From assembly GCA_963705305.1 (NCBI GenBank), contig OY970067.1, positions 2,560,001 through 2,624,000 on the forward strand: DNA of 64,000 nucleotides, read 5' to 3'. The notes under the pieces were generated by a model, which ran no database searches, was not told the DNA's origin, and was given only the letters and a program-made list of their open reading frames with translations. The translations under genes and the position numbers were made by a program. Origin of the DNA: an uncultured Methylomirabilota bacterium (lineage in GTDB: Bacteria; Methylomirabilota; Methylomirabilia; Methylomirabilales; 2-02-FULL-66-22). Shown one piece after another: positions 596-19,591 of the stretch. The stretch's first letter is position 1, and each line of letters starts with the position of its first letter.

Positions 596-1171
596 TCACC
601 CCGCCCGGCGCCGCTCGTCCCCAGTGGGACGGGCGGCGCCGGGGGCCGTGGCGACCGGCGGCCGCTCGTCTGAATTGATCCGCGCCAGGCCGGACAAGCT
701 CCGCCTGGCCTCGTTCACCCTGAGCATATAGATGCGCTCCCGGTACCGGACGAAGCAATCGAAGGCCAGCAGCATGAGGTCGTCGATCCGCGCCTCCAGG
801 ATCGTCAGGGCCTGCTCCCCGGGCGACGGCTGGCCGGCGACCGTCTCCCGGATGACTTTCTTCAGCAGCGGGAGGAAGGCCAGGGCCTGGCCGGGGGTGA
901 AATCCTGCACGGCCCTGATTTGGACGATCGGGTCCAGCACTCCGGCCAGCCGGGCCGGGTCCATCCCTGCGACGAGTTCATCGAAGAGGGCGGGGAGGCC
1001 GTGCCGCAGGGCGTCCCCGACGGGATTTCGGAAGGGATCCTTTTCGCGCCCGAAGAAATGCGCCGTCTGCGGGGCATACGTGTCCAGGGTTCGCGCGAGC
1101 CAGGCCCCGACGATCCGGCTCCGGCTCGTCGCGAACATCTCCGCCAGCGAAGGCACGTCACCCCCGTTCAT
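596..1171 (-). CDS. dsrT: DsrT (RsbRD N-terminal-domain protein)
   Basis: Motifs KDPFRNPVG and IVQIRAVQDFTPGQAL; typical position between dsrC and dsrM. Confidence 0.85.
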   Translation of the reverse strand: MNGGDVPSLAEMFATSRSRIVGAWLARTLDTYAPQTAHFFGREKDPFRNPVGDALRHGLPALFDELVAGMDPARLAGVLDPIVQIRAVQDFTPGQALAFLPLLKKVIRETVAGQPSPGEQALTILEARIDDLMLLAFDCFVRYRERIYMLRVNEARRSLSGLARINSDERPPVATAPGAARPTGDERRRAG

Positions 1172-1183
1172 GGACCTGCCTTG

Positions 1184-1504
1184 CTAGACGCAGCCGGTCG
1201 GCTTGGGAAGACCGGCTACCTTGCAGGCCCCCTTCGCCGGCCCCGAGGGGAACAGCGCGTAGATCTCTTTCAGGTCGAACCCGGTTTCCTTGCACACCTT
1301 GCGGACCATGGGGGCAATCTTGAACTTCGTGTAATAGTCGCGGAGGTACTTGACCACCTTCCAGTGGGCCTCCGTCATCTCCTGGATGCCCTCTTGATCC
1401 CTGGCCAGCTCGGCCGCCAGGCTTTCATCCCACACATCTGGGTCCTGGATGAACCCATCCTCGTCCACCTCTATTTGCCTGCCGGCATAGACGACGGTTG
1501 CCAT
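1184..1504 (-). CDS. dsrC: DsrC sulfur carrier
   Basis: 106 aa; C-terminal ACKVAGLPKPTGCV has both conserved cysteines, so it is a true DsrC rather than TusE. Confidence 0.96.
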   Translation of the reverse strand: MATVVYAGRQIEVDEDGFIQDPDVWDESLAAELARDQEGIQEMTEAHWKVVKYLRDYYTKFKIAPMVRKVCKETGFDLKEIYALFPSGPAKGACKVAGLPKPTGCV

Positions 1505-1579
1505 AGTCTATCCTCTCCTCTCCTGCGCGTGATCGTCCTGCCGCCGGCCTCGCAGGCCGCGGCGTTGGTTGGGGAAGGC

Positions 1580-3076
1580 TCACACGGGAGCCGACATTCC
1601 TAATCCCTTTCCGGCCAGGGCCGTCTCCACGGGCCTGGCGGCCTTTGTCTGCAGCCCTCCGGCGGCCGCCAGGCGCCTGGCCGCGTGCTGGCGGGCTTGC
1701 CGGATCAATGCGGGTGCCCACTCGGGGGTGCCGGCGGCATGAAAATGCACGAAGGAGGCCAGGACATTTCGATGGGTCAGGCCGTCGTGCGCGCCATCGA
1801 ATCCGGTGCCCCGCTCCACCCGGAAGGCCAAGCGCAGATCCTCCGACCGGGCGGACCGGACATACGAGTAGCGGAACTCGTGCCCCCGAAGCTTCGTCCC
1901 GCAGGGGAAGAAGGGGTTGGGTCCGCTCACCTCGATCACCGCATAGCCGTGGCCCCAGGGCCGCCTGCCGAGCTCGAAGGTGACGGGGAACACGCCCACC
2001 ATGGGATAGGCGGTCCCGTTGATCTGTATCGCCTCGCCGAGATAGATCAGCCCGCCGCACTCGGCGATTACGGGCAGCCCCGCCCCGATCTCCCGACGCA
2101 GCGCATCCCGGAAGCTGCGGTTGGCGGCCAGGGCGGCCGCGTGCGTTTCCGGATAGCCGCCGCCGATATAGAGGGCGTCGACGGGGGGCAGATCGGGGTC
2201 GCCGAGCGCGTTGACCTCCACGATCTCTGCGCCCAGCCGTTGCAGCTGTTCCAGGTTCTCGGGATAGTAAAACGTAAAGGCGCTGTCCCGGACCACGCCG
2301 ATCCGTACGCCGCCCGCCACCGCCTGCGACTCGCTCTCCCCTGACCAGTGGAGCGGGGGGGCGGACGCCGCCAGCCGGAGGATCCCGTCCAGGTCGACGT
2401 GCTCCCCCACCACCCGACGGGCGATGCGGATGGGCTCCGCCACCGAGGGGTGCTCCGCCGGGGTGAGCAGGCCCAGATGCCGCTCGGGGAATTCCAGGTC
2501 GGCAAGCCGTGGCAGGCTGCCCAGGATGGGCAAACCGCAGACTTGTTCCACGGCGGATCGGATCGCCCGCTCCTGGCGGGGCGTGGCCACGCGGTTCAGC
2601 AGGACCCCGGCCAGACGCAGCTCCGGATCCATGTGCTGGCAGCCCAGCACCATGGCGGCCACGGTCCGAGTCGTCTTGGTGCAATCGACGATCAGGACGG
2701 CCGGCGCCTGGAGAAGCTTGGCCAGCTCCGCCGAGCTGGCCGCCGCCTCGGCCCCCACCCCATCGAACAGGCCATGATTGGCCTCGAGGAGGGTCACGTC
2801 GGCCAGGTGCCCATGCTCACCGACCGAGCGGCGAATGTGCTCCTCGCTCATCAGGAACGTATCCAGGTTGCGGCAGGGGCGCCCGCCCGCCCGCGTGTGC
2901 CAGGCGGCGTCGATGTAGTCCGGCCCTTTCTTGAACGGCGCGACGGCGAGCCCCCGCGCCTCCCAGGCGCCGATCAGCCCCAGGGCGATCAGGGTCTTGC
3001 CGGTGCTCCCGCGAAGGCCGCAGAGCATCACCCGGGGGCACGCCGCACTCATCATGCCTTCTGGGTCTCCCATCAT
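1580..3076 (-). CDS. dsrN: DsrN siroheme amidase (cobyrinate a,c-diamide synthase family)
   Basis: GKT, FKKGPDYID, ERHLGL, FTFYY, AECGGL motifs; inside the dsr operon. The start may be at 3055. Confidence 0.9.
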   Translation of the reverse strand: MMGDPEGMMSAACPRVMLCGLRGSTGKTLIALGLIGAWEARGLAVAPFKKGPDYIDAAWHTRAGGRPCRNLDTFLMSEEHIRRSVGEHGHLADVTLLEANHGLFDGVGAEAAASSAELAKLLQAPAVLIVDCTKTTRTVAAMVLGCQHMDPELRLAGVLLNRVATPRQERAIRSAVEQVCGLPILGSLPRLADLEFPERHLGLLTPAEHPSVAEPIRIARRVVGEHVDLDGILRLAASAPPLHWSGESESQAVAGGVRIGVVRDSAFTFYYPENLEQLQRLGAEIVEVNALGDPDLPPVDALYIGGGYPETHAAALAANRSFRDALRREIGAGLPVIAECGGLIYLGEAIQINGTAYPMVGVFPVTFELGRRPWGHGYAVIEVSGPNPFFPCGTKLRGHEFRYSYVRSARSEDLRLAFRVERGTGFDGAHDGLTHRNVLASFVHFHAAGTPEWAPALIRQARQHAARRLAAAGGLQTKAARPVETALAGKGLGMSAPV

Positions 3077-3092
3077 CCCTCTCGCGAATCCC

Positions 3093-3350
3093 TCAATCGC
3101 CCGAGCCCTTGTCCTGCTGCGAGGGAAGCTCGACGTAGCTCCCGTCGTAGAAGGTGTAGACGCAGCGGCCCGCGTCCGTCAGATGACGCAGCGCCTCCTT
3201 GCAGGCGTCCCGGTTGCAGCGGTCTGCGCCGAAGCGCTCGATCATCGCCTTGGTCAGCTCCGTCGGGCGCAACCGGCGGCTCCCGGTGCTTTCCTTGACC
3301 ATCTGATACATTGCTTCAGCCAGCTCGTCGACGGTCACTGGGTCGGCCAT
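3093..3350 (-). CDS. dsrD: DsrD
   Basis: 85-aa ORF (MADPVTVDELAEAMY...CKEALRHLTDAGRCVYTFYDGSYVELP) right after dsrB, with a GGAGG RBS. Confidence 0.82.
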   Translation of the reverse strand: MADPVTVDELAEAMYQMVKESTGSRRLRPTELTKAMIERFGADRCNRDACKEALRHLTDAGRCVYTFYDGSYVELPSQQDKGSGD

Positions 3351-3360
3351 GGAAGCCTCC

Positions 3361-4443
3361 TCACCCCTTGAAGTACAGGGAGCGCTGAAAACTCGTCTCG
3401 GCGTGGCGGTAGTCGTCGATGTGCTGCTTGGTGAACGGGATGCCCGTCTTCTGGAAGAAGCGGGGCCAGCCGATGCGCTCGATCCATTCGCCGATCCGCT
3501 CGTACTTCCGGGCGTCCGCCGCCCAGACATCCACGATGTTCTTCACGGCGGCCACGACCTCGGGCCAGCGCGGCGGATTGTTGGGCAGATAGGGCACGGC
3601 CAGTTTCGAGAACATGGGGGCATGCCGCGCGTGGCTGACCTTGCCCCCCACCCAGATGGAAACGCCGTCGTTCAGCGCGTTGTTGATGGGGAGCGCCGGA
3701 CACACCGTGTAGCAGTTTGCGCAGAACATGCACTTCTCTTCGAGGATCTCCACCGTCTCCTTGCCGTCGATCCGGGTGGGACGGATGGCCGCGGTCGGGC
3801 AGGAGGCGACCACGTTGGGAATCTCGCAGACCTTGGGGAGCCGCTCGTGATCGACCTTCGGCGGTCGACGGTGAACGCCCAGGATGGCGATGTCGGAGCA
3901 GTGGACGGCGCCGCACATGTTCAGGCAGCAGGCCAGCGCCAGGCGAATCTTGGCCGGCAGCGTGAGCGTCGTGAAGTGCTCGATCAGCTCGTCCATCACG
4001 GCCTTCACGATGCCGGAGGCGTCGGTGGCCGCGGTGTGGCAGTGGATCCAGCCCTGCGTGTGGACGATGCTGGAGATGCTGTTGCCCATCCCGCCCACCG
4101 GGAAGCCCTTCGTCTTGAGATCGGCAATCAGGGGCTCGATCCGGCCGGGATCCGTGAGGAGAAACTCGATGTTGTGCCGGCTGGTGAAGCGGACGTAGCC
4201 GCCGCTATACGTGTCGGCCAAGTCGCACAGCTCCCGGATCGTCTGGATGCTCAGAAGGCGGGGCGTCCCCGCCCGCACGGTGTACAGCTTGTCGCCCGAG
4301 GCTGCCACGTGCACCATGACGCCGGGCTTGAGGATCTCGTGGCACTGCCATTGTCCATAGTTCTTCTTGATGATGGGGGGCAGATACTTCTGATAATGCG
4401 GGGGCCCGATATCGGTCTTCCGCTGGACAGTGGTCTCGGCCAT
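3361..4443 (-). CDS. dsrB: Dissimilatory sulfite reductase beta subunit
   Basis: [52 protein letters not shown]. Confidence 0.98.
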
Positions 4444-4500
4444 GGGTGGATTCTCCCCTGTGAGGGCGCCGCGTCCGCCGGGGGGGGCGCCGGATCATGC

Positions 4501-5706
4501 CTAGGCCTGGGTCGGCTCCTCTTCCAAATATTCCTCGTAGAAGACGTACGGATTCTCGCGCGGATGGGCCACCATCTCGGGCTGGGGCTCGACCCCGATG
4601 GCCTCCAGGAAGTTCCCCAGGCCGACCCGCTGGATGAACTCGCCCACGCGCTCGCGGTTCTTGCCCTCCTCGGACCACACATCGATGATCTTGTCCGCCA
4701 GTTTCTTGATCTCGGTGTAGGGGGGCTCCATCTTCATGAAGGGCACCAGGACGGACGAGAGCATGGCGCCCTGCAGGATCGGCGCCTTGGCGCCGATGAG
4801 CAGGGTGGCGCCGCGCTCCGGACCCGGGCGCAGGGCCTTGGGCATCACGTTGATGCAGTGCATACACTTGACACACCACTCGTTGTCGATGAACAGTTCT
4901 TTGCCGTCCCAGGCCATGCACTTGCTGGGGCACTGCGCGATCACCTCGGCCTGGATGTCGATCCCGTCGGTGGCGTACTGCCGGACGGCTGCCGGATCGA
5001 TCTGGATGGGCCCGCGCCAAGTGCCGATGATGCTCATGTCGGCGCGGGCGATGGCCGCCACGCAGTCGTTGGCGCAGCCGGAGGCCTTGAACTTGAACTT
5101 GTAGGGGAACGAGGGGCGGTGCATCGAGTCCTGGTAGTACATGGTCAGGTCATAGATGCATTGCAGCGTGTCGAAGCAGGCCCATTCGCAGCGAGCCGGC
5201 CCCACACAGCAGCTGGGGGTTCGGACCACCGAGCCGGACCCTCCCAGGTCGAACCCGTTCTGGGTGAGATCGCTGAATGTCGGCTCCAGCTCTTCCGTGC
5301 GCGTCCCCAGCAGGATGATGTCGCCCGTGGACCCGTGCATATTGGTGAGGCCGGAGCCGTGCCGCTCCCACAGGTCGCAGACGGCGCGCAACGCCTCCGT
5401 CGTGTAAAACCAGGCGGCCGGATGGTTCACCCGCAGGGTGTGGAAGTGCGCCACGTGGGGAAACTGCTCGGGGAGATCGCAGTACCGCCCGATGACCCCG
5501 CCGCCATATCCGCGAACCCCGACGATCCCGCCGTGCTTCCAATGCCCGATCTTCTGAGCGTAGGAGAGTTCCAGCAGGCCGAGGACGTCGCGGGACATGG
5601 CGTTGCTTTCGGCGGCGCGCTTGATCTCCTTGACGAAACTGGGCCAGGGCCCCGATTCCAACTGATCCAGCTGTGGTGTCTTGGGCAGCGACGTGTCATC
5701 GGCCAT
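4501..5706 (-). CDS. dsrA: Dissimilatory sulfite reductase alpha subunit
   Basis: [59 protein letters not shown]. Confidence 0.98.
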
Positions 5707-5745
5707 GAGTCAGCACCTCCCTCGTTGGTGACCCGAACCTGGCGT

Positions 5746-7398
5746 TCAGCGCATCTCGATGTACCCGCAGGGACACTGCTCCGCGCACTTCTTGCAACCC
5801 GTGCAGAACTCCAGCTTGATCCGGTAGGGCTGGCCGGCCTCCGCCGGCTTTTGGATGGCCCGCTCCTGGCAGTACTGCCAGCAGGTATCGCACTCGAAGC
5901 ACATGCCGCAGCTCAGGCAGCGCTTGGCCTCGGCCAGCGCCTGGTCCTCGGCGAGGCCGATGGTCACCTCGCGGTCCGGATCGGCGAACCGCTCCTCCAC
6001 CGGGATCGTCGCCGCGACGGACCGCGGCGCCTTGGGGTAGAATTCCGGTCGCAGCGTCTCCTTGGTGGCCACGGGCGGGGGTGCCGGCTCGGGCTCTTGG
6101 ATGCCGCGGAGCCGCCGATGAATGGTCTCGGCGACGCGACGACCCCGGAAGACGGCCGTGCTCACGATCCCCAGATCCAGGTCGTCCGGCGCGGCGAACG
6201 TGCCGGGGACGGCCGTCTCCCCGTGCGCGTCGGTGGAGACAGATCCTCCCTCGCCCCGTAGGGACTCCAGGCCGACCGTGTCCCGCTCGGCCTTGCCCGC
6301 CACGATGATCGTGCTGGCCGGCAGGAAGAGCTCTGCTTCGGCCCCCCGGGGCTGTCCCGCGTCGGCAACGCGTCGGCAGGTAAGGCCGGTTGCTCGCCCT
6401 GCTTCCATGCGAACGGCCGAAGGAACCGCCTGGCCCTGGATGGCGACCCCCTCGCGCTTGGCCTCTTCGATCTCCTGCTTGCCGGCGGGCATGTCCTCCG
6501 CCTTGCGGCGCGATACGATCGTGACGTGCGCCCCCAGGCGGCGTGCCACGCGGGCCGCATCCAGGGCCGTATCGCCCCCCCCGACCACCAGAACCTCTGT
6601 TCCCACCTCCAGGGGCTCGCCGCCGTTCATGCGGTGCAGGAGCTCGGCCGCGGACAGGACGTTGGGGGCGTCCCCGCCGGGCAGATCCAGGACGACCCCG
6701 CGGTGCGCCCGGATGCCGACGAAAATTGCGGCGTACTCCTGGCGGAGGGCATCCAGTGTGATGTCCTTGCCGAGGGCGCTGTTGCATTGAAAGGCCACCC
6801 CGAGGGTTTCCAGGCGGGCAATCTCTCCGTCCAGCACCGGGCGGGGCAGGCGGAAGGCTGGGATCCCGTACCGCAGCATGCCGCCGAGCTTGGGGAAGGC
6901 CTCGAACACCGTGACCGGATAGCCGCGCCGCGCCAACTGGTAGGCACAGGAGAGGCCTGCAGGTCCGGAACCGATGACCGCGATTCGCTCGGTCTGTCGT
7001 TCCTCGGTGATCGAGCGCAGGGGGAGCTGCCGCTGGAGGGCGTAGTCCCCGACGGCCCGTTCGAGGCAGTTGATCGCGACCGGCTCGTCGACCTGTAGGC
7101 GGCTGCATTGCAACTCGCACTGGTGAGGGCAGGCGCGGCCGCAGCTCGCCGGCAGCGGGTTCTTGTCGGCGAGGAGATAGAACGCCTCCTCCATCGCCTG
7201 GGAGAGAGATTTTCCGTGCTTCTCCGCCAGGGCCAGCGTCATGATGACCGAGCGAATGTCCTGATGGTTGGGGCAGGCCTTGGAGCAGGCCGGGGTCCTC
7301 TCGCTGAAGTACGGGCGCATGGGCGAACCGCCCCGGTCGCTTGGTGGCTGGCCTCCCCCGGATCCGAGTTTGCGCACCTTCTTGACGACAACGGCCAC
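5746..7398 (-). CDS. dsrL: DsrL iron-sulfur flavoprotein, NAD(P)H:acceptor oxidoreductase
   Basis: GTG start at 7398 with AAAGGAG RBS; N-terminal Fe-S cysteines, GSGPAG (FAD), GGGDTA (NAD(P)H), two C-terminal 4Fe-4S motifs; 550 aa; directly upstream of dsrA. Confidence 0.88.
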   Translation of the reverse strand: MAVVVKKVRKLGSGGGQPPSDRGGSPMRPYFSERTPACSKACPNHQDIRSVIMTLALAEKHGKSLSQAMEEAFYLLADKNPLPASCGRACPHQCELQCSRLQVDEPVAINCLERAVGDYALQRQLPLRSITEERQTERIAVIGSGPAGLSCAYQLARRGYPVTVFEAFPKLGGMLRYGIPAFRLPRPVLDGEIARLETLGVAFQCNSALGKDITLDALRQEYAAIFVGIRAHRGVVLDLPGGDAPNVLSAAELLHRMNGGEPLEVGTEVLVVGGGDTALDAARVARRLGAHVTIVSRRKAEDMPAGKQEIEEAKREGVAIQGQAVPSAVRMEAGRATGLTCRRVADAGQPRGAEAELFLPASTIIVAGKAERDTVGLESLRGEGGSVSTDAHGETAVPGTFAAPDDLDLGIVSTAVFRGRRVAETIHRRLRGIQEPEPAPPPVATKETLRPEFYPKAPRSVAATIPVEERFADPDREVTIGLAEDQALAEAKRCLSCGMCFECDTCWQYCQERAIQKPAEAGQPYRIKLEFCTGCKKCAEQCPCGYIEMR

Positions 7399-7478
7399 GC
7401 GTGGAGTCTCCTTTCCCCAGCTTTTCGCGTCCTTCCGTGGACGCGTAGAATACGGCTTTCCGCCATCAAGGATGGCAG

Positions 7479-7494
7479 GCAAGGCATTTGCCAG
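7479..7494 (-). promoter_or_regulatory. Sigma-54 (-24/-12) promoter of the dsr operon
   Basis: Minus strand CTGGCAAATGCCTTGC = GG-N10-GC with TGGCA/TTGC context, about 80 bp upstream of dsrL. Confidence 0.75.
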
Positions 7495-7558
7495 GTCCGC
7501 CGAGGGCTGCAAAAGCTTGCGAAATGGACCTTGGGGGAAAGAAGCACAGACGGGGCAC

Positions 7559-7605
7559 GTTACCGAAAGGTAACGGGCGAGGCTGGCACGTTACCTTCCG
7601 GTAAC
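7559..7605. promoter_or_regulatory. Twin palindromic upstream activator sites GTTACC-N4-GGTAAC
   Basis: GTTACCgaaaGGTAAC (7559-7574) and GTTACCttccGGTAAC (7590-7605), starts 31 bp apart. Confidence 0.75.
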
Positions 7606-7797
7606 ATGGACCGGCCAAGTAAGCCCGAGACGCTTCAACTTCTTCCACAGGGTCTTTCGGCTGATCCCTAGAATCTGTGCCGCCCGAGCCCGGTTCCCCT
7701 CGGTCAGTTGGAGCACAGAAACGATGTGCTCACGTTCTGCCTGTTCCCGCACCTTCTGGAGAGGCCGGCCCATTATCTCATGAACAACAGGCACCAC
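7591..7797 (-). CDS. Stand-alone Fis-type helix-turn-helix protein (HTH_8)
   Basis: [46 protein letters not shown] upstream of the GTG start. Confidence 0.75.
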
Positions 7798-8108
7798 CCG
7801 AACACTCCTACATTCATCCCAGAGAAGACGCTATGCGGCGAGCCCTCGCACATCAATACCGGGCAGCCCCCGGCACGCCCCCCGGTCCGTGCCTCGCAGG
7901 GACAGACAAACCCACCACCCTCGAGGCTGCCGCCTCGATGCCTCAAAATGTGGGCGGCGCACCTCCTATCCGATATGCCAGGAGCGGACAACCAAGATCC
8001 GCCAGGACCCGCCTGCCTCCTCCCTACGGGGGTTCCGGCCGGATCCCCGGGCTCGCTCCACGGCGCGAACTCGGGAATCCGGCCTGGGCGGTTATCGGAC
8101 CCGGCGGG

Positions 8109-8282
8109 CTAGCCGGGGAAGATGGCGGTGCCGATAATCACGAGCACCACCAAGAGCACCAACCCGAGAACCAGGCTCCACGTGACCAGCTTGCGTTCGA
8201 CCGGCAAGAATGGCTCGTAGGAGATTTTTGCCATCTCTTCCGCGAGCTTTTCTCCCGTCGGAGCGGCGTGTGGTTGCGCCAT
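8109..8282 (-). CDS. Small single-TM membrane protein, likely partner of the upstream transporter
   Basis: 57 aa MAQPHAAPTGEKLAEEMAKISYEPFLPVERKLVTWSLVLGLVLLVVLVII...; GGAGG RBS. Confidence 0.75.
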   Translation of the reverse strand: MAQPHAAPTGEKLAEEMAKISYEPFLPVERKLVTWSLVLGLVLLVVLVIIGTAIFPG

Positions 8283-8349
8283 GGTGTTCCCTCCTGTCGT
8301 TGCTGAGAACCGCTCACGCCCCCGATCGTGCAGGGACGCCCTTGTCACG

Positions 8350-9792
8350 TCAGACGGTCGGCGGCACGATCCCGTGGAAGAAGACCCACGAGATCACCAG
8401 CCCGATCCAGATGATGAACCCGAACAGGCACACCAGGTACACGAGCGCCAGCTTGCCGATGCCCTCCTCCCACAGCTTCTTGAAGTTCGAGACGAGCCCG
8501 ATGGTGAAGAAGGTCATGGCGAAGAAGAGCACGCGGAACACGTTGCTCTCTCCGGTCGCCAGCTTGGCCGCACCCAGGATGCTCGGCACATTGAGGACCA
8601 GAAAGAGCATCACCAGGAACGTCAGGGCGTACCCGATCACGAACTTGGGGAAGCGCTCCCAGATCTGCCCCGCCGAGACGGTCTCGCCCGGCTTCTTGTC
8701 GATGGCGTAGCACCAGATCAGGGCCAGCACGAAGGCCCAGACGCCGATGAAGATGTCGATGAAGATCTTGATCGTGGTAGCCGTCATCAGGATCCAGCCT
8801 TCCTTGTAGTTCACCCCTGACGCGGCCAGAGCCTTGGCCCGGATCAGGGCATCCACGATCGCCCCGCTGGCCACCGCGGCGCCGTCCGTCTTGACGGCCA
8901 GACCCATCCAGGCCCCTGCGACCATGGGCTGATGGTACAGGAACGTCTCTGCGATGAACGGCAGGAACAGCAGTTCGACCACCGCGAAGAGGACCACCAG
9001 CGACGAGACCATTACGGGAATCATCGGGCGGGACTTGACCGCCGCGCCGGTGGCGATGGCTGCCGAGACGCCGCAGATGGAGATGCCGGACGCCAGGGGG
9101 ACGGCCCATTCCCGACTGAACCCGAAGGCCTTGCGGGCGATGAGATACACCAGGGACCAGAAGATCAGGTAGGCGACGACGATGGCCGAGAACCCGAGAA
9201 ATATGATCGCCTTGGCGAGGCCGGTGGCGCCCGCGGCGCTGACGCCCAGGGACGCCCCCAGGATCACGATGGCGGTCTTGATGTACCACTCGGGTCGGGT
9301 GGCCTCCTTGAGGGCCGCCGTGATTCCGGGAAAGAAGTTGCTCAGGATCAGGCCCACCAGGAGGGCCACGACATATCCGGACTCACCGGTCAACCCCAGG
9401 GCCCAGGAGATGTGGAAGGCCTTGAGCTGGTTGGGGGTGGCCGCAATGTAGGCCCAGCTGCCGACCAGCCAGCACAGATAGCTGACCCAGAAGATGACCG
9501 TGAAGCCGAGGGCGAATTCCCCGAAGTTGAACTTCAGCGCCTTGGCCCCCACCCCCATGATGACCAGCATGAAGATGTAAGTGCACACCAGGGAAAGGAT
9601 CCCCGGCATCCCGGCGTAGTTCTTCGACAGCGGGGCTATGGACTTGGTGATATCGGTCCACGTGTTGGTGGCCACGCTCCAGCCGAGGAGATCCACCCCC
9701 GCAAGAACACCCAGGCCCACCAGGAAGACGAAGAGCCCAATCCACAAGGACCACCAGTCTTCGTTGTTTCGGATGAACTTTGTCCTCTCCAT
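8350..9792 (-). CDS. Putative sulfate exporter family transporter (YeiH/UPF0324)
   Basis: NEDWWSLWIG, EWYIKTAIVILGA, ASGISICGVSAAIAT, WERFPKFVIGY; many TM helices. Confidence 0.85.
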   Translation of the reverse strand: MERTKFIRNNEDWWSLWIGLFVFLVGLGVLAGVDLLGWSVATNTWTDITKSIAPLSKNYAGMPGILSLVCTYIFMLVIMGVGAKALKFNFGEFALGFTVIFWVSYLCWLVGSWAYIAATPNQLKAFHISWALGLTGESGYVVALLVGLILSNFFPGITAALKEATRPEWYIKTAIVILGASLGVSAAGATGLAKAIIFLGFSAIVVAYLIFWSLVYLIARKAFGFSREWAVPLASGISICGVSAAIATGAAVKSRPMIPVMVSSLVVLFAVVELLFLPFIAETFLYHQPMVAGAWMGLAVKTDGAAVASGAIVDALIRAKALAASGVNYKEGWILMTATTIKIFIDIFIGVWAFVLALIWCYAIDKKPGETVSAGQIWERFPKFVIGYALTFLVMLFLVLNVPSILGAAKLATGESNVFRVLFFAMTFFTIGLVSNFKKLWEEGIGKLALVYLVCLFGFIIWIGLVISWVFFHGIVPPTV

Positions 9793-9872
9793 TTTTCTAC
9801 CCCCCACTCGAGATGAACGAGTACGTCCGTTACGCAGAGGACCGCGCCCTTCCATTGTAAATGGAAAGAGGT

Positions 9873-9888
9873 AGCAAGGACCTTGCCG
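9873..9888 (-). promoter_or_regulatory. Sigma-54 promoter of the transporter operon
   Basis: Minus strand CGGCAAGGTCCTTGCT = GG-N10-GC. Confidence 0.7.
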
Positions 9889-9951
9889 GGCCGGAGAGCC
9901 GAGGAAAATTGTATGGAAATCGTATGTTGCGAAAAAAGGGGGAAGGCCCGG

Positions 9952-9999
9952 GTTACCGCTTTGAAACGTCAGCGGGGATCGGCGTTACCGATCGGTAAC
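9952..9999. promoter_or_regulatory. Twin upstream activator sites (GTTACC-N4-GGTAAC; one imperfect)
   Basis: GTTACCgcttTGAAAC (9952-9967) and GTTACCgatcGGTAAC (9984-9999), starts 32 bp apart. Confidence 0.72.
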
Positions 10000-10013
10000 G
10001 CCGGGAGGGTTCA

Positions 10014-11114
10014 TCACAAGCCGTACAGTTTGTAACAGGTGCGGCAGGGTTCGGGGGGTGCCGTTCCAGGCTCGGATGCATCCCCGGAGAGGGCCGAAAG
10101 CCCCAGGGCACGCGTCCTTGCCTCGGAGAGGCGCGCCGCGAACTGCTGCCGGAACTGCTGATAGGCGGGACTGCTCCAGATCGCCATCAGGTCCCGATCC
10201 TTGATGTTGCCGAACCGGACCCGGGGCACGCTGAGGGATCGGCCTCCGAAATACCGCGGGATCTCGCTCTGGCCGGCCAGCCCCATGTACGTGCAGGGCG
10301 AGACCCATCCGTCGCAGGATACAAAGAGGATATCCAGGGGGTCGGCCTCGCACATTGCCGCCTCGTCGGGCTCCAGCGGGTATGACCGGAATGCCAGACC
10401 GGCCCGCTCCGCCCTCCTGCCGGCGAGCTCCACGCTCTGCGAGAAGGCCTCGCAGAGCGGCGGCGGACAATTGAAAGCCTTCAGGGCATCCTGCTCGGGG
10501 GTCACAACGTAATCGAGGTTGGTTGCGTACAGCTCGTCCGCGCCGAGGGATGCGGCTAACTCCACCGCCTGGGGCAATTCTTCCATGTTGGTTCTGGTCA
10601 TGAGATAGGAGAGTTCCACCTTGGGCGCGTCCCGCCCGTGGTCGCTGCGCAGGGCCAGGAGGCGGCGGATGTTCTCGAGGATCAGCGGGAGATCAGAGCC
10701 CACCCGAAGGCTCTCGTGCGTGCGCGGCGTGGCGCCGGCGATGGAGACCGCCAAGAGATCCAAGCGCAGGTCCACAAGTCGCCTCGCCGCGTCCGGGGTC
10801 AGCCGCATGCCGTTCGTGGTGAAGCCCACCCGGCACCCGGCGTCCTTGGCCACGGCGATCATGTCGAAGAGGCGGGGGTGGAGCAGCGGCTCGCCCCACC
10901 CCTGCAGGTGGACGTGCTTCACCCGGTCGAAGGCCCGAGCGATGCGCTGGAAAGCCTCCCACGGCAGATCCATCTCCCGCCACCGGTCCGCCAGGCCGAC
11001 CCGCGGGCACATCACGCAGCGGAGGTTGCAGCGGGAAGTTACCTCGACCTGGAAGGCCTTAAGGGTCCGCCCGCCCGTGCGATGCCGGAACCACTCGACG
11101 ACGCGCTTGACCAT
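10014..11114 (-). CDS. Radical SAM protein with SPASM/twitch-like C-terminus
   Basis: CNLRCVMC, LQGWGEPLLHP, GFTTNG, C-terminal VSPC and CRTC. Probable start MVKRVV at 11114. Confidence 0.85.
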   Translation of the reverse strand: MVKRVVEWFRHRTGGRTLKAFQVEVTSRCNLRCVMCPRVGLADRWREMDLPWEAFQRIARAFDRVKHVHLQGWGEPLLHPRLFDMIAVAKDAGCRVGFTTNGMRLTPDAARRLVDLRLDLLAVSIAGATPRTHESLRVGSDLPLILENIRRLLALRSDHGRDAPKVELSYLMTRTNMEELPQAVELAASLGADELYATNLDYVVTPEQDALKAFNCPPPLCEAFSQSVELAGRRAERAGLAFRSYPLEPDEAAMCEADPLDILFVSCDGWVSPCTYMGLAGQSEIPRYFGGRSLSVPRVRFGNIKDRDLMAIWSSPAYQQFRQQFAARLSEARTRALGLSALSGDASEPGTAPPEPCRTCYKLYGL

Positions 11115-11244
11115 CCGCCACTCGTCCCTCGGCCCGCCATGCGCCCATGAAACGTGCACAGGATCGAGGGGTCTGCCGTTCGCCTTCCTGGACGTCCACG
11201 CGCGGGGGAGAAATGCTCGATCCCCTCCCGCCCCCATAGGCAAT

Positions 11245-12255
11245 TCAAGTGGCGTGCCAGTCCGGCGGGGTCTGGCGGAACCACGCGGCGGTCTCGGCCA
11301 CGCCGGTGGGGAAATCCACCGGGGGGACATATCCCAGCTCGTTCCGGATCCGGCTGATGTCCGGCTCGCTGTCCCGATACAGGGCGCACAGGCGCATCAG
11401 CGCCGCGCGCGATGGTCGAAAGTGGCCTTCGGAAGGCTCTGCCTCGGGGACGGCCATCAGGGCCAGGAGCGGCGCCACCAAGGCCTTGGGAATGCGGAGC
11501 CAGGGAACCGGCAAGTTCAGCGCCGTGGCCAGGGCCGTCAGGAACTTCCGGCAGACGACGCCGAACCCGTCGGCGACATTGTAGATCCGCCCCGTTGCCT
11601 CGGGGCGCGTCGCGGCCAGCCAGAGGGCGTACGCGACGTTGCGCGCATAGCTCAGATCCAGGGTGTTCCGGCCGTTGCCCACCATGAAGAAAAGGGGGGA
11701 TGCCAGGCGATGAATGAGGTGCGGGAGCAGCACGCGCTCGCCCGGTCCCCATCCCATGCCCGGCCGCAGGATGACCGTGGGCAGTCCGGTCTCGCGGGCG
11801 CGCTCCTCGACCAGCTCTTCGGCCTTGACCTTGCTCTCTTCGTAGGGGACGACGAACGCCGCGGCGCGCGGGGCGTCCTCGGTGAGGCCGCGGTGGTCAC
11901 GCTCGACCCCGTACACGACCGTGCTGCTCACGTACACGAATCGCTCGACGTGAGCCGCCAGACAGGCCTCGAGCACGGTGTGGGTCCCGCCGACATTGAT
12001 GTCCAGATGTCTCTCGCGGGGGGCGAACGGGGCCACGAGACCGGCCAGGTGAAAGACGGTGGCGGCGCCGGCACAGGCCTCGCGGACTGCCGTCAGATCG
12101 CGGATATCGCCCACCCGGTGTTCCACATCCGGCAGCGACACGCCGGGCGATGTGCCCGGCCGGAGGAGGACCCGGACCTCCATCCCGCGCTCGCGCAGCA
12201 TCTGCACCAGGTGCGATCCCAGAAACCCCGTTCCTCCCGTCACAAGCGCCACCAT
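11245..12255 (-). CDS. NAD-dependent epimerase/dehydratase (extended SDR)
   Basis: VTGGTGFLG, FHLAG, YEESK catalytic YxxxK. Confidence 0.9.
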   Translation of the reverse strand: MVALVTGGTGFLGSHLVQMLRERGMEVRVLLRPGTSPGVSLPDVEHRVGDIRDLTAVREACAGAATVFHLAGLVAPFAPRERHLDINVGGTHTVLEACLAAHVERFVYVSSTVVYGVERDHRGLTEDAPRAAAFVVPYEESKVKAEELVEERARETGLPTVILRPGMGWGPGERVLLPHLIHRLASPLFFMVGNGRNTLDLSYARNVAYALWLAATRPEATGRIYNVADGFGVVCRKFLTALATALNLPVPWLRIPKALVAPLLALMAVPEAEPSEGHFRPSRAALMRLCALYRDSEPDISRIRNELGYVPPVDFPTGVAETAAWFRQTPPDWHAT

Positions 12256-12496: not shown

Positions 12497-13840
12497 CTAG
12501 TCAAGGCCGAGCTGCTTCATCTTCTTCCAGAGTGTCTTCCGGCTGATGCCCAGGATCTCTGCCGCCTTCTGTCGCTGCCCGCCGACGCTGTGGAGGACCT
12601 CTTGAAGGTAGCGGCGCTCCGTCTCCCGGACGGCGCCTATCAGGGGCTGGGCTGCGAGGCTCCCCAGCTCCGCGGACACCGGAGCGGCCTCCGGGAAGAT
12701 ATCCTCTGCCGTGAGCACCGGGTTCTTGGTCAGCGTGACGGCGCGCTGGATGCTGGCCTCCAGCTCCCGGACGTTTCCGGGCCAGGCATAGGCGAGCAAC
12801 TGCCGGGAGGCCTCGGGAGCGATGCCATGGATGGTCTTGCCCAGCGGCCGCGCGTACTTTTCGAGAAAATGCTCTGCCAGGGGCAGGACGTCGTCTTTCC
12901 GTTCCCGCAAAGGCGGGAGCAGGATGGGGATCACCTTGAGGCGATAGAACAGATCTTCCCGCAGGCGCCCCGCCAGCACCTCGTCCTCCAGCCGCTTCCG
13001 CGTAGCCGAGAGCAGCCGGACATCCACCTTGATCGTCTGACTCCCGCCGATCCGCTCGAACTCCTTCTCCTGCAGGACCCGCAGGAGCTTGGCCTGGACG
13101 GCGGGCCCGAGATCCGCGACCTCGTCCAGGAACAGGGTGCCCCGATGGGCCAGCTCGAACCGCCCCTTCCGCTCCCGAATGGCGCCGGTGAAAGCGCCCT
13201 TCTCGTGCCCCAAGAGCTCCGCCTCGAGGAGTGTCTCCGGGATGGCGGCGCACGCCACCGACACCAGCGGGTAGGCCCGGCGCATACTGTGCTGATGGAT
13301 GGCCCGGGCGACGAGCTCTTTCCCCGTTCCCGTCTCGCCCTGGATGAGGACGGTGGCGTCACTCTTGGCCACGGTGGCGATGAGCTCGCAGATCCGCGCC
13401 ATCGCCTCGCTGACGTAGATGAGGTCGGCGAACCGCTGAACCTGTCCGGCCCCCGTCCGCTCGCGCGGAGCCCGGCCGGATTGGACCAGCAGGCCCCGCA
13501 GCAGCGTGAGCAGCTCCTCCGAAGGAAACGGCTTCAGCAGGTAATCCGTGGCTCCGGCTTTCATCGCCGCCACGGCCGACTGGATCGTGCCGAAGGCCGT
13601 CATCATAATGGCAAGGCCCTGGGGGTTCGCCGCCTTGAAGGTCTGCAGCAGCGTCAGGCCGTCCACCTTGGGGAGCTTGAGGTCAAAGAGCGCCACGTCG
13701 AAGCTCCGGGCCTGGATGAGGCGAAGGCCCTCCGCCCCATCGGAGCCGCTGGTGACCTCGAACCCTTCCTCGCCAAGGTCGTTCGCCAGTGTCAACCGGA
13801 GGATCGGCTCGTCCTCTACCAGCAGGATGGTCGGTCGCAT
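12497..13840 (-). CDS. Sigma-54-dependent response regulator (NtrC/AtoC family)
   Basis: Receiver domain, GETGTGKE, GAFTGA, WPGNVREL, C-terminal Fis HTH. Confidence 0.95.
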   Translation of the reverse strand: MRPTILLVEDEPILRLTLANDLGEEGFEVTSGSDGAEGLRLIQARSFDVALFDLKLPKVDGLTLLQTFKAANPQGLAIMMTAFGTIQSAVAAMKAGATDYLLKPFPSEELLTLLRGLLVQSGRAPRERTGAGQVQRFADLIYVSEAMARICELIATVAKSDATVLIQGETGTGKELVARAIHQHSMRRAYPLVSVACAAIPETLLEAELLGHEKGAFTGAIRERKGRFELAHRGTLFLDEVADLGPAVQAKLLRVLQEKEFERIGGSQTIKVDVRLLSATRKRLEDEVLAGRLREDLFYRLKVIPILLPPLRERKDDVLPLAEHFLEKYARPLGKTIHGIAPEASRQLLAYAWPGNVRELEASIQRAVTLTKNPVLTAEDIFPEAAPVSAELGSLAAQPLIGAVRETERRYLQEVLHSVGGQRQKAAEILGISRKTLWKKMKQLGLD

Positions 13841-13847
13841 GGCTGCC

Positions 13848-15303
13848 TCAGTCTCCGCTGGCGGGGAGGGCCACGGTCACGGTGGTCCCCCTGCCGACTT
13901 CACTGTCCACGGCAATGGAGCCCCCGTGAGCCCTGACGATTCCGTAGGTTACGGAGAGGCCCAGCCCCGTTCCCTTCCCGACCTCCTTGGTGGTGAAGAA
14001 CGGATCGAAGATGCGCGGAAGGTTGTCGGGAGGGATGCCGATGCCGGTGTCGGCGACGCGGACCTCGACGAACGGTTTGATCGCCCTCCGGCAGAGGCTG
14101 CCGTCGATTGTGAGCGTTCCCCCCTCGGGCATGGCCTCGATGGCGTTCATCAGGATGTTGAGGAAGACCTGCTCGAGCTGGTGCGGATCCGCCAAAAGAC
14201 CGGGAGCCGCCCTCTCCATGGCCAGGGAGAAGGTGATCCGCCTGGCCGTGAGCTCGTGCTCGAGGAGGGTCAGGCAGCGCTGGAGCAGGGGGGTCAATTC
14301 CACGGGGAGAAGCCGCGGCTTGGCCTCCCGGGCGAAATTCAGGAGCTGCCCGACGGTCCGGCCGATCCGGTCCAATCCCTCCCGCAGCATCTCCAGGTAT
14401 TGCACCCGCTGCGCCTCGTCCCGCGCCCCTTTCAGGAGCGTCCGCACGCAGTTCTGCATCCCGGCGATGGGGTTGTTGATCTCATGGGCGATGCCCGCGG
14501 CCATCGTGCCCAGGGACGCCAGGCCCTGGGCCCGCCGGATCTCGTCCGCATGGCGGTCTTCCAGCTGTCGTCGGGCCTCCGCCAATCGAGCCACCATGGC
14601 GTTGAGGCTCTTGGCCAGAACGTCCCAGCTCGTCCCGGCTGTCGTCGGGAACGCGGGCGGTGAGATCGCCGGCCTCCACCAGGCTCATCGTCCGTGACAG
14701 GGTATGAATCCGCTGCCCGGCCACCAGGGAGAAGAACAGCCAGATCATTCCGCCGGCGGCGATGAGTCCCGCGACGCCGATGACGATCATGTACATCCAG
14801 TGGGGATCGGCCCACAAATCCGCCGAGGGAACATACACCTGCGCATTCAAGTAGCCGAGGACCGCGGTCTTGCGCTGGTGGCAGCGGGCGCAGCTAGGAC
14901 GATTCGGGATGGGGAGGAACACTCCCACGGTTCGCTCCCGGAGGTTCCAGACCGGCTCCGAGAAGGTTGCATCCTTGGGCAATTCTTCCGGCGAAAGAAC
15001 CTGCCCCTCCTCTTCCGGCTTGCTCGCGCGGAGGATGGTGCCGTCGGCGGCCACGATCCGAATGCCGGCCAGGACCGGCTGGCGCCCGATCCGGGTGAGA
15101 ATTGCCTGGACGACGTGCGTCTCTCCGCGCTCCATCGCCCGGGCCAGCGCCCGGACTGATACCTCGGCAATCAGATCGGCCTCTTGCCTGGCCATCAGCA
15201 TCAGACGATTCACCTGGATGCTCGAGGCGAGGATGGTGTAGACGAGGATGACCAGCAGGAGGACGGCCCCGATGCCGAGGATCATCTTCATCCGCAGCGA
15301 CAT
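13848..15303 (-). CDS. Sensor histidine kinase with periplasmic CxxCH domain and HAMP; +1 frameshift near 14619, probably a sequence error
   Basis: Split across ORFs 14482..15303 and 13848..14597; removing one base restores [22 protein letters not shown]-box, N and G boxes; CARCH between two TM helices. Confidence 0.85.
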
Positions 15304-17077: not shown

Positions 17078-19591
17078 TCAGGCCACCAGTCCCAGCTTTC
17101 CCTCGTAGATGAACGTCCGGGCGTTCTCGGCGATCACCTCGGGATCAACCTGCAGCCGGGCCACACCGGTCTCCATGGCGGCCGTGGCCACCGCCTTGGC
17201 GACGGCCACCGGCACGCGGAAGTCCAGCATGTAGGGCAGGATGTACTCCGGCTTCAGCTCCTTCGCGCTCACCAGGTTCGCGATGGCGTGGGCCGCCGCG
17301 ATCTTCATGGCGTCGTTGATCTCGCGGGCGCGGACATCCAGGGCGCCGCGGAAGATGCCCGGGAAGCCCAGGGAGTTGTTCACCTGGTTCTCGAAGTCCG
17401 ACCGGCCGGTGGCCACCACGGCGGCCCCGCCGGCCTTGGCCTCCTCCGGAAAGATCTCGGGGACGGGGTTCGCCATGGCGAAAATGATGGGGTCCTTCGC
17501 CATCGTCCGCACCATCTCCGGGGTCACCGCCTTGGCCACCGAGAGCCCGACGAACACGTCGGCCCCCACCAGGGCGTCGGCCAGCGCGCCGCTGCGGCGC
17601 TCCTTGTTCGTGATGCAGGCCATCTCGGCCTTGACCGGGTTCATCCCCTTGGGCCGCCCTTCGACCACGATCCCCTGGCTGTCGCACAGGATCAGGTCCT
17701 TCACGCCGACCTTCAGGAACAGCCGGGCCACGGCGATGGAGGCGGCCCCGGCCCCGTTCAGGACCACGCGGGCGTCGGCCACGCTCCGCCCGGTGATCTT
17801 CAGGGCGTTCAGGAGCGCTGCCAGCACGATGACCGCCGTCCCGTGCTGGTCGTCGTGCATGACCGGGATATCCAGCTCTTTCTTGAGCCGGTCCTCGACC
17901 GCGAAGCAGCGCGGTGCGGCAATGTCCTCCAGATTGATGCCGCCGAAGACCGGGGAGATGGCCTTGACCACCGCCACGATCTCCTCGACGTCCTGGGTGG
18001 CGATGCAGACCGGGAAGGCCTCCACGCCGCCGAAGGTCTTGAAGAGCACGGCCTTGCCCTCCATGACGGGCATGGCGGCCCGGGCGCCAATGTTGCCGAG
18101 ACCAAGGACCGCGCTCCCGTCCGAGACCACCGCCACCAGGTTCCCCTTGGCGGTGAGGTCGTAGACCTTGGCCGGGTCCTTCAGGATGGCCTCGGCGGGC
18201 AGCGTCGAGCCGGGGGGCAGGTACAGCAGGCTCAAGATGTTGGCGTCCCGGATGGGCACTTTGCTCACCACCTGGAGCTTCCCGCGGAAGCGGCGATGCA
18301 GGTCCAGGGCTTCCTCTTTTTGCGTGAGCGGCTTTCCGGCGGCTCGGGGCTCGACCGGGAAGCTGCCCTCGTAGATAAAGCGGCGCGTCCGCTCGGCAAT
18401 GCGCTCGGGGTCCATCTCTTTGCGGGCTTCTCCCGTGGCCATGGCAACCCGGGCCACCGCCGCGGCCAAGGTCGGCGCCACGCGAAAGTCGAACACCGCC
18501 GGCACGATCCGCTCGGCGGAGCATTCCGACTGGGGCACCAGCCCCGCCAGAGCGTCCGCGGCCGCCAGCAGCATCTGGGTGGTGACGTTGCGGGCCTGGA
18601 CGTCCAGCAGCCCGCGCAGCACCCCCGGGAAGACCAGCGCGATATCGAGCTGGTTCGGGTAGTCGCAGAGCGCCGTGGCCACGATCTTGGCGCCGGCCCG
18701 CTTGGCCTCAGCCGGCGAGATCTCCGGTGTGGGGACGGCGAGGGCGAAGAGGATGGGATCGGCCGCCATGCGCGACACCATCTCGGGCGTGAGAATCTGG
18801 GGGGCCGAGAGGCCGATGAAGACGTCCGCGCCTATGATCGCCTTGGCCAGCGGTCCATCCACGTTCTCCGGGTTGGTCTGGCGGGCGATCTCGGCCTTGA
18901 CCCAGTTCATATCGCTCGGCCGGTAGGTGTGGACGGCCCCCGCCCGGTCACAGACGACAATGTGGCGAGCCCCTGCCGCGAGCAGGAGTCGCACCACACC
19001 GACGCCAGCCGCACCCGCCCCGCAGACGACGATTCGCGCGTCCTCCAATCGCTTGCCCACCTGGGGCAGGGCATTCTTCAGACCGGCCAGGACCATGATG
19101 CCGGCCCCATGAGCATGATTGTGAAAGACGGGAACGTTCACGGCGCGCTGGAGGTGGTCCTCCAAGGAGAAACAGCGAGGAGAGACGATGTCCTCCAGGC
19201 AGAAGGCGCCGAAGGTCGGAGCCAGCATGGTGACGGCCTGGATCATGTCGTAGAGGGACTCGGCCTTCAGACACATGGGCAGGGCATCGATGCCGGCGAA
19301 CGTCTTGAAAATGACCGACTTTCCCTCCATGGCAGGGAGCGCGGCCTCGGGTCCGGCCTGCCCCAGGCCGAAGAGGGCCGAGCCATCGGTGATCAGCCCC
19401 ACGGTGTTGCCCCGGCAGGTGTACTCGAACGAGTTCTTGGGATCCCGGAAGATCTCCATGCAGGGCTCGGCGACTCCGGGTGTGTACACCAGACTGAGTG
19501 TGCCCCGGTCCTTGACAGGCACCTTGCTCTCCACCCCAATCAGGCCACGGTGTCGACGGCGGTACTCCAGCGCATCATTTTCTACGGTCAT
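17078..19591 (-). CDS. Tandem-duplicated NAD(P)-dependent malic enzyme (two ME units fused)
   Basis: 837 aa; two consecutive ~410-aa malic enzyme units, each with MEGK, LEDI, GAGAA and ADVFxGLS motifs. Confidence 0.92.
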   Translation of the reverse strand: MTVENDALEYRRRHRGLIGVESKVPVKDRGTLSLVYTPGVAEPCMEIFRDPKNSFEYTCRGNTVGLITDGSALFGLGQAGPEAALPAMEGKSVIFKTFAGIDALPMCLKAESLYDMIQAVTMLAPTFGAFCLEDIVSPRCFSLEDHLQRAVNVPVFHNHAHGAGIMVLAGLKNALPQVGKRLEDARIVVCGAGAAGVGVVRLLLAAGARHIVVCDRAGAVHTYRPSDMNWVKAEIARQTNPENVDGPLAKAIIGADVFIGLSAPQILTPEMVSRMAADPILFALAVPTPEISPAEAKRAGAKIVATALCDYPNQLDIALVFPGVLRGLLDVQARNVTTQMLLAAADALAGLVPQSECSAERIVPAVFDFRVAPTLAAAVARVAMATGEARKEMDPERIAERTRRFIYEGSFPVEPRAAGKPLTQKEEALDLHRRFRGKLQVVSKVPIRDANILSLLYLPPGSTLPAEAILKDPAKVYDLTAKGNLVAVVSDGSAVLGLGNIGARAAMPVMEGKAVLFKTFGGVEAFPVCIATQDVEEIVAVVKAISPVFGGINLEDIAAPRCFAVEDRLKKELDIPVMHDDQHGTAVIVLAALLNALKITGRSVADARVVLNGAGAASIAVARLFLKVGVKDLILCDSQGIVVEGRPKGMNPVKAEMACITNKERRSGALADALVGADVFVGLSVAKAVTPEMVRTMAKDPIIFAMANPVPEIFPEEAKAGGAAVVATGRSDFENQVNNSLGFPGIFRGALDVRAREINDAMKIAAAHAIANLVSAKELKPEYILPYMLDFRVPVAVAKAVATAAMETGVARLQVDPEVIAENARTFIYEGKLGLVA

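Follow-up and report, generated by a model that had tools for sequence, protein, structure and literature searches.

A conserved HTH_8-only protein encoded on paired palindromes upstream of dsrL in Methylomirabilota, a possible competitor of its NtrC-type activator

A stand-alone gene of 68 codons, placed directly before dsrL on two copies of a palindrome, encodes an HTH_8 domain with the recognition helix of an intact NtrC-type activator from the same window (the whole stretch of 64,000 nucleotides analysed here, from an uncultured Methylomirabilota bacterium). The gene is real and conserved, evolves under purifying selection and is part of a well-defined regulatory cassette, whose geometry recurs together with the palindromes; its logic would be a variation on enhancer competition as known elsewhere. 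We lean, if only slightly, towards reading the small protein as an activator-induced competitor, which would restrain the dsr and transporter operons by negative feedback. The features of the window are listed by position.

596-7398, minus strand: target operon dsrL-dsrA-dsrB-dsrD-like-dsrN-dsrC-dsrT-like with dsrL at 5746-7398, continuing left of the window with dsrMKJOP-like genes; the labels dsrD, dsrT and dsrMKJOP are presumed from position and sequence motifs, without a family match
7479-7493, minus strand: predicted sigma-54 -24/-12 promoter of the dsr operon, preceding dsrL (pattern match)
7510-7522, minus strand: IHF-like CAA-N4-TTG element between enhancer and promoter, only partly conserved
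7559-7574, no strand: proximal palindrome, 31 bp from the distal one and 80 bp before the dsr sigma-54 match
7590-7605, no strand: distal palindrome GTTACC-N4-GGTAAC, 111 bp before the dsr sigma-54 match
7591-7797, minus strand: stand-alone HTH_8 gene (Fis/NtrC-type DNA-binding domain), 68 aa (ORF call, Pfam)
7621-7761, minus strand: conserved core of 47 codons, residues 13-59, long helix plus helix-turn-helix (alignment)
7639-7674, minus strand: codons of the 12-residue recognition helix region, identical to that of the activator (sequence comparison)
7805-7809, minus strand: Shine-Dalgarno sequence AGGAG, 7 nt 5' of the GTG (from sequence)
8039-8083, minus strand: strong GC hairpin without U-tract, 3' of the transporter genes, -32.3 kcal/mol
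8109-8282, minus strand: 57-aa membrane peptide after the transporter, no Pfam match
8350-9792, minus strand: YeiH/PF03601-family transporter (PF03601, E 4.5e-21)
9874-9888, minus strand: predicted sigma-54 promoter of the transporter operon (pattern match)
9984-9999, no strand: third palindrome, which stands alone as enhancer of the transporter promoter, 110 bp before its sigma-54 match
12497-13840, minus strand: cognate NtrC-type activator of 447 aa with receiver, AAA+ domain with GAFTGA and HTH_8 (Pfam)
13848-15303, minus strand: cognate sensor kinase, split over two frames with a break near 14620

The open reading frame runs on the minus strand from a GTG start at 7797 to a TAA stop at 7593-7591. 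Plausible in-frame starts were present at 34 of 34 loci examined, with ribosome-binding sites of differing strength. HTH_8 (PF02954) is the sole Pfam match of the protein (residues 17-57, E 1.6e-15) and, at 57 bits against a cut-off of 22 over model positions 2-42, assigns it to this family; the receiver domain and the AAA+ domain with GAFTGA are both absent. The 12 residues of the recognition helix are identical in the 447-aa activator at 12497-13840, and the activator at 20769-22136 carries ILGIDRRTLYRK in their place. Thirty HTH_8 domains are encoded in the genome, none of the other 28 has the helix of these two proteins, and the small gene is the only one of the 30 that lies within a frame of less than 200 codons. 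The palindrome at 7590-7605 encodes its last four codons and the stop. The first-pass annotation had described an HTH-only frame of 68 aa with its own ribosome-binding site and without receiver and AAA+ domains, a helix common to the activator at 12497-13840 and replaced in the other activator, and last codons overlapping the distal palindrome; all of this was borne out. Among 113 aligned stand-alone proteins, 109 carry SRKTLWKK, a figure partly owed to the motif-selected search. No identical entry for the exact 68-aa sequence was present in the protein collection searched. A decayed AAA+ sequence upstream, which had been named as the mark of a truncated pseudogene, was looked for and not found, since an in-frame stop lies 11 codons before the start and tblastn of the activator against 7301-10100 matched the HTH alone (next best E 0.028), with no AAA+ remnant. 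The GC3 of the small gene, 0.65 versus 0.86-0.91 for its neighbours, hints at low expression.

Within the genus, the small gene coincides with dsrA and an exact copy of the palindrome, all three being found in the same 9 of 21 genomes; the control for the palindrome search, the pattern read backwards, had matches in 3 genomes. A search for HTH_8-only genes upstream of dsrL in relatives and a dN/dS analysis had been proposed as checks of the first reading, and both came out in its favour. In 8 relatives the gene lies directly upstream of dsrL and its product is 62-77 % identical. Over the 47 core codons, which do not overlap the palindrome, dN/dS was 0.17 (dN 0.12, dS 0.73; 36 pairs from 9 genomes, with a second copy in genome G020 left out of the mean), and the HTH of the activator gave 0.13 (45 pairs, 10 genomes). 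Variable columns among the 47 of the core numbered 16, 14 and 39 at the first, second and third codon position. Thus the small gene is under purifying selection. The cores of small protein and activator are only 53-61 % identical, the recognition helix being invariant in both. The N-terminus and the start codon of the small gene are variable, and the tail after the core is missing in two relatives.

An AlphaFold2 model of the protein (pLDDT 72) has helices at residues 12-31, 36-43 and 47-57, a long helix followed by a helix-turn-helix as in the HTH_8 layout. Foldseek ranked Fis first (E 3.8e-3), with no match at E <= 0.001, and the closest solved sequences were Fis (E 7e-8) and then the DNA-binding domains of NtrC1, ZraR and NtrC. 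The alignment to Fis spans only Fis residues 54-97, leaving the N-terminal half of Fis unmatched, and the score of 37.5 bits against an equivalog cut-off of 99 places the protein outside the Fis family (PRK00430). A counterpart of the N-terminal arm and helix A of Fis was not recognized; residues 1-12 of the small protein are variable and of low confidence. A20, E21 and I25 are invariant. The protein is like Fis of Proteobacteria in being stand-alone and derived from an NtrC-type C-terminus, and Fis is its top match in sequence and fold; however, it has 68 aa against 98 and a score far below the Fis cut-off, and its gene is patchy in distribution and tied to one regulon and a 16-bp site. The origin of Fis from an NtrC-type C-terminus goes back to Morett and Bork 1998, as cited in the available parts of PMC7166090 and PMC11407668. 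With the C-terminal domains of NtrC-type proteins (NtrC1 4l5e, ZraR 1ojl, NtrC 1ntc, NtrC4 3e7l) the small protein shares the HTH_8 match and the three-helix fold, and with NtrC-type enhancer-binding proteins in general the palindromic sites upstream of a sigma-54 promoter. Unlike these it is encoded alone, beside an intact activator with the same helix. Isolated DNA-binding domains of activators bind specifically to their own sites; those that lack helix A are monomers when not on DNA and can have micromolar affinities, about 20 uM for the NifA domain (PMC10590331, in the part available). No conserved helix A precedes the core, and without dimerisation through its long helix the small protein would compete only weakly with a cooperative activator.

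The exact palindrome GTTACC-N4-GGTAAC is present in three copies in the 5.65 Mb genome, at 7559, 7590 and 9984 of the window; in a profile scan these scored 23.7-27.6 bits and the next genomic site 12.8. The promoters and the IHF-like element were predicted with what we take to be the sigma-54 -24/-12 and IHF consensus sequences, and rpoN and four IHF/HU-family genes are present in the genome. A sigma-70 promoter scan returned no sites, and three terminator-like matches were weak and at chance level. Of 60 shuffled sequences, 1 was as strong as the hairpin at 8039-8083, which may limit read-through from the transporter genes into the small gene; several relatives have similar hairpins. A homologue of the transporter in locus L102 matches TIGR00698 below its cut-off. 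Radical SAM/SPASM and NAD-dependent epimerase genes (10014-12255 in the window) accompany the transporter in most dsr-bearing relatives, with a palindrome or sigma-54 site of their own in G017 and L099. Further on, at 17078-19591, the window encodes an 837-aa protein with two malic-enzyme-like halves (by sequence motifs) that is conserved in relatives. AprA and AprB, searched with the L106 proteins, had no match at E < 1e-20 in this genome (G000); together with the dsrMKJOP-like genes left of the window this makes sulfite respiration without sulfate activation likely.

An orthologue of the activator (at least 70 %) was found in 8 of the 9 dsr genomes, the exception being G008, which is 76 % complete; 3 genomes that lack a dsrA match have it too. 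The palindrome and a sigma-54 site come directly after the activator orthologue in G018 and G004. In these two genomes, which have no dsrA match, the single palindrome and the sigma-54 site (L088:4686 and L089:12543) lead into a formate dehydrogenase operon; the formate dehydrogenase is spread over two frames, as expected for a selenocysteine enzyme. The frame break of the cognate kinase near 14620 falls inside the HAMP domain, and the kinase is a single open frame in 12 of 12 relatives. If the frameshift is real and not an assembly error, signalling in this strain may differ.

Beyond the genus, a protein search limited to 35-139 aa yielded 341 matches; the 120 listed among them are all HTH_8-only and bear generic names where they are named. 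The length limit of this search cannot show that the proteins stand alone, this status comes from genome context. A scan of species genomes gave 55 loci, 14 of them with a stand-alone gene, under the labels Methylomirabilota, Rokubacteria, Chloroflexi, Tectomicrobia, Acidobacteriota, Deltaproteobacteria and Nitrospirae; several of these 14 loci come from genus genomes that the counts above include. From a metagenome scan 80 of 442 loci were kept, and 18 of these have the small gene, in two cases cut at the 5' end. Both scans were seeded by an SRKTLW-type motif and thus saw only this subfamily, and the loci are related and partly redundant, so that the counts overstate independence. Two activator tails (L152, L205) and a 56-aa frame in L167 were dropped before counting. 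In the class sample the small gene was found in 11 of 201 genomes searched. Four further class genomes have a divergent dsrA-like match, and only one of them, G144, has the small gene, beside its activator and on a contig other than that of the dsrA-like match.

The gene dsrL follows the small gene directly in 21 of 32 loci; the other 11, some of them short, show none. Other operons headed by the small gene start with genes like ArrA (L107, L108), TtrB/TtrA (L109), PhsA (L111) and DsrO/P (L110), labels that are mostly below the family cut-offs. These operons and the placement in G144 argue that the small gene belongs to the regulon of the activator and not to dsr as such. The module first noted at the dsr enhancer is also found at the head of arsenate-, tetrathionate- and thiosulfate-reductase-like operons. 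A dsr-specific factor was rejected in view of the 11 of 32 loci without dsrL downstream and of the four further class genomes with a divergent dsrA-like match, of which only G144 has the small gene.

The geometry of the cassette is nearly fixed. At 28 of the 32 loci the distance from the helix codons to the start of a site with at most two mismatches is 65-69 nt, and another site follows 30-32 nt later; the cassette is thus the gene with two palindromes about 31 bp apart, after which a sigma-54 site follows in most cases. The exceptions are L106, L110, L157 and L169. Among 87 loci of the same helix type that have a full activator only, 35 show a match to the palindrome no more than 350 nt from the stop, a poor one in 3 cases, and none shows a tandem pair downstream. 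Helix and site vary together: each of the 22 good sites next to an LWKK activator retains one inner C:G or both (both in 15 cases), whereas of 14 sites beside LWEK activators none has both and four have one, counts that leave out three poor matches and are inflated by kinship. The position that varies between LWKK and LWEK, residue 52 of the small protein, where the Nitrospirae type has E, is K in 110 of 113 rows of small proteins. On this indirect support from sequence, strengthened by the joint occurrence of helix and palindrome in several phyla, the recognition helix would read GTTACC-N4-GGTAAC. In L110 the nearest activator has SRKSLWEK, unlike the helix of the small protein.

Among loci L128-L147, mostly of Geobacteraceae, full activators with the same helix have a palindrome on or just after their stop, a second palindrome precedes the activator start in 4 of 5 mapped loci, and in L128 an NrfA-like nitrite reductase gene comes after the activator. 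The sigma-54 pattern was searched downstream of these activators and no site was found. As the 3' ends of full activator genes in Geobacteraceae lie on or beside a single palindrome, the small gene likely arose by copying of an activator 3' end together with its site. Small proteins of Nitrospirae are 75-83 % like the HTH of a full activator. An independent origin in Nitrospirae was considered and dropped, as a single origin passed the test (p-AU 0.54 over 48 columns) and most of the branching in trees of the 48-residue core was unresolved. Copying of the cassette itself was observed in G020, where a 319-bp duplication of the small gene and its two palindromes (L012:6149-6467 and 10770-11088, 96.6 % identical) lies on either side of a UxaA-family gene and two IS4-like stretches; the sigma-54 site is retained only by the copy adjacent to dsrL. 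L163 and L164 contain a promoter-less copy of the small gene similar to that of G020. In the same genome, L241 (G020:C1, HTH at 558929) is a frame of 160 aa that holds only the last third of another activator, with a strong sigma-54 site 100 nt upstream, and is a candidate for a second truncated regulator, or a pseudogene.

A sigma-54 match lies within 260 nt upstream of the small gene in 12 of 34 loci, compared with 2.2 % of windows drawn at random from this genome. In four of the 12, L106, L110, L155 and L169, the gene is immediately preceded by a palindrome of its own as well as a sigma-54 site. In 10 more of the 34 loci, the window included, the small gene follows about 2 kb behind the transporter promoter with its palindrome and sigma-54 match. 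Three loci with at least 3 kb of upstream sequence have neither promoter type, nine have less than 1.9 kb upstream, and L160 and L179, cut at the 5' end, were left out of the count. With one or the other of these promoter types upstream of the small gene in 22 of the 34 loci, synthesis of its product is likely activator-dependent. No sigma-54 site was found directly before the small gene in this genome. Activator-dependent synthesis has support across the loci; co-transcription from the transporter promoter, as first suggested, would in the present genome have to get past the hairpin of -32 kcal/mol at 8039-8083.

In the reading that we favour, the kinase would phosphorylate the activator at 12497-13840, which would then assemble on two palindromes, loop to sigma-54, probably with the help of IHF, and switch on the dsr and transporter operons by opening their sigma-54 promoters. 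The small gene would be transcribed from an activator-dependent promoter, here that at 9874-9888 by read-through and elsewhere from its own sigma-54 promoter. The small protein would dimerise via the long helix and compete for the palindromes of the activator. Because it would occupy these sites and cannot open the promoter, it would act as a brake: with palindromes filled by a protein unable to drive sigma-54, output would be delayed, self-limiting, capped or shut off.

The tandem sites, present at 28 of 32 loci with the small gene and at none of the 87 with the full activator only, count against a competitor in so far as they fit co-occupancy equally well. A dimer of the small protein on one site could, in the manner of Fis, bend the DNA or stabilise the activator on the other, and the feedback would be positive. 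We consider such a helper unlikely, although it is the strongest of the rival readings. The pairs spaced by 31 bp go with the small gene, and single-site promoters have their palindrome 109-132 bp before the sigma-54 site, which is the spacing of the distal palindrome (111 bp), so that the proximal one at 80 bp appears to be the extra site. Fis is also the best structural match, and it cooperates with the NtrC homologue LuxO at sigma-54 promoters according to the available part of PMC11407668. However, the sites are identical in sequence and so are the helices, and nothing was seen that would keep the two proteins on separate sites; the spacer has an IHF-like element, and four IHF/HU genes are present in the genome. 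Tandem pairs (31-32 bp) without an adjacent small gene exist in L110 and L169, and a single shared origin of the cassette could explain the association of gene and paired sites.

Mixed dimers between the small protein and the C-terminal domain of the activator could spoil ring assembly, a dominant-negative action like that of plant microProteins. Both proteins have the same fold and a long helix of the dimerisation type, in which A20, E21 and I25 are invariant in the small protein; nevertheless this action is quite improbable, as the dimerisation helix has diverged from that of the activator while the recognition helix is unchanged, so that the constraint common to both proteins would be DNA specificity. 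Slightly less probable still is an effect in cis, by which transcription and translation across the enhancer would matter and the protein would be secondary. The distal site lies 65-69 nt after the helix codons at 28 of 32 loci and the palindrome usually supplies the stop, but selection acts on 47 codons outside the palindrome, the stop precedes the site in L104, L105, L158 and L167, and the sites are distant in L106 and L110. That the product is a general nucleoid or global Fis-like protein, located here by chance, would agree with its Fis-like fold and with its being the only HTH_8 of a short frame among the 30 of the genome; its restriction to 11 of 201 class genomes, nearly always on palindromes, the mere three strong sites in the genome and the 37.5 bits against a Fis cut-off of 99 make this very improbable. 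A pseudogene remnant of a truncated activator, to which the variable N-terminus and start, the low GC3 and the full activators of Geobacteraceae that end on the same palindrome might point, has next to no probability and is already largely refuted by the dN/dS value, by a core intact in 9 genus genomes and 32 scan loci and by the lack of an AAA+ remnant, while activator sequence is still present 5' of the HTH in 7 of the 8 further short HTH_8 frames that were inspected in relatives; neither relaxed selection nor an upstream AAA+ remnant was seen, and the fragment was rejected. A split activator, in which the small gene lends its HTH to an HTH-less AAA+ protein, was likewise rejected: 8 of 9 dsr genomes encode an intact activator that has an HTH of its own, and such an activator lies directly upstream of the small gene in L107-L109, L111 and G144.

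The known restraints on sigma-54 activators are their own input domains or binding partners; PspA, HrpV, NifL and FleN target the activator protein and are not known to be HTH-only DNA binders. They are like the proposed competitor in the negative control of a sigma-54 activator in trans, for PspA and HrpV according to the available part of PMC7057263 and for NifL and FleN in excerpts of the literature. Closer in site of action are PprA and TurA of Pseudomonas putida, unrelated proteins that interfere with XylR binding at the sigma-54 promoter Pu (PMC3253710, available part). The likeness is the interference with activator binding at a sigma-54 enhancer; PprA and TurA are, however, separate host regulators, whereas the small protein is paralogous to a domain of the activator itself, its gene lies on the enhancer, and its inducer is likely the activator. 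In the sulfate reducer Desulfovibrio vulgaris the two related proteins LurR and NrfR share enhancer sites (PMC6456213, in part), but both are full activators and their motif is of the GTC..GAC type, unlike GTTACC-N4-GGTAAC. Small single-domain mimics of larger regulators are known from phage lambda, whose NinH is proposed to compete with a host regulator (PMC7166090, in excerpt), and from the microProteins of plants (PMC9638782, in excerpt); NinH mimics the host Fis from a phage, and microProteins work via protein contacts in eukaryotes. The HcpR2 motif GTAAC-n4-GTTAC was considered as a match for the palindrome and rejected, as it has the reverse arrangement and belongs to a CRP-family protein (PMC1274295, available part). 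In full-text searches of main texts from a mainly open-access literature, no description was found of an HTH-only paralogue on the enhancer of its activator, nor of the palindrome GTTACC-N4-GGTAAC; the same sources on sigma-54 control of dsr in Methylomirabilota or Desulfovibrio yielded nothing that describes the module. PMC11406059, as far as its text was available, mentions dsr genes of Methylomirabilota and not their regulation by this module.

A wider proposal is more tentative, and we hold it slightly more likely to fail than to stand. The palindrome would be the enhancer of a sigma-54-dependent dsr operon, and the small proteins would form an undescribed class of decoy microproteins, each a free copy of the activator's DNA-binding domain that is induced by the activator and spread as a portable cassette of gene plus enhancer. 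In several phyla they would convert a two-component switch into a self-limiting pulse for operons of anaerobic respiration, among them those of dsr and of arsenate, tetrathionate and thiosulfate reductases. Such proteins hide behind automatic labels, e.g., 'DNA-binding NtrC family response regulator'. The parts of the circuit could be rebuilt in E. coli, and a matched pair of activator and decoy would be useful in synthetic biology. Kinase, activator, 16-bp site, sigma-54 promoter and small partner together make a circuit for dissimilatory sulfite reduction that is fully specified and testable, in a lineage still uncultured. If the reading is true, a copy of the DNA-binding domain induced by its own activator would be a further and easily missed layer of control.
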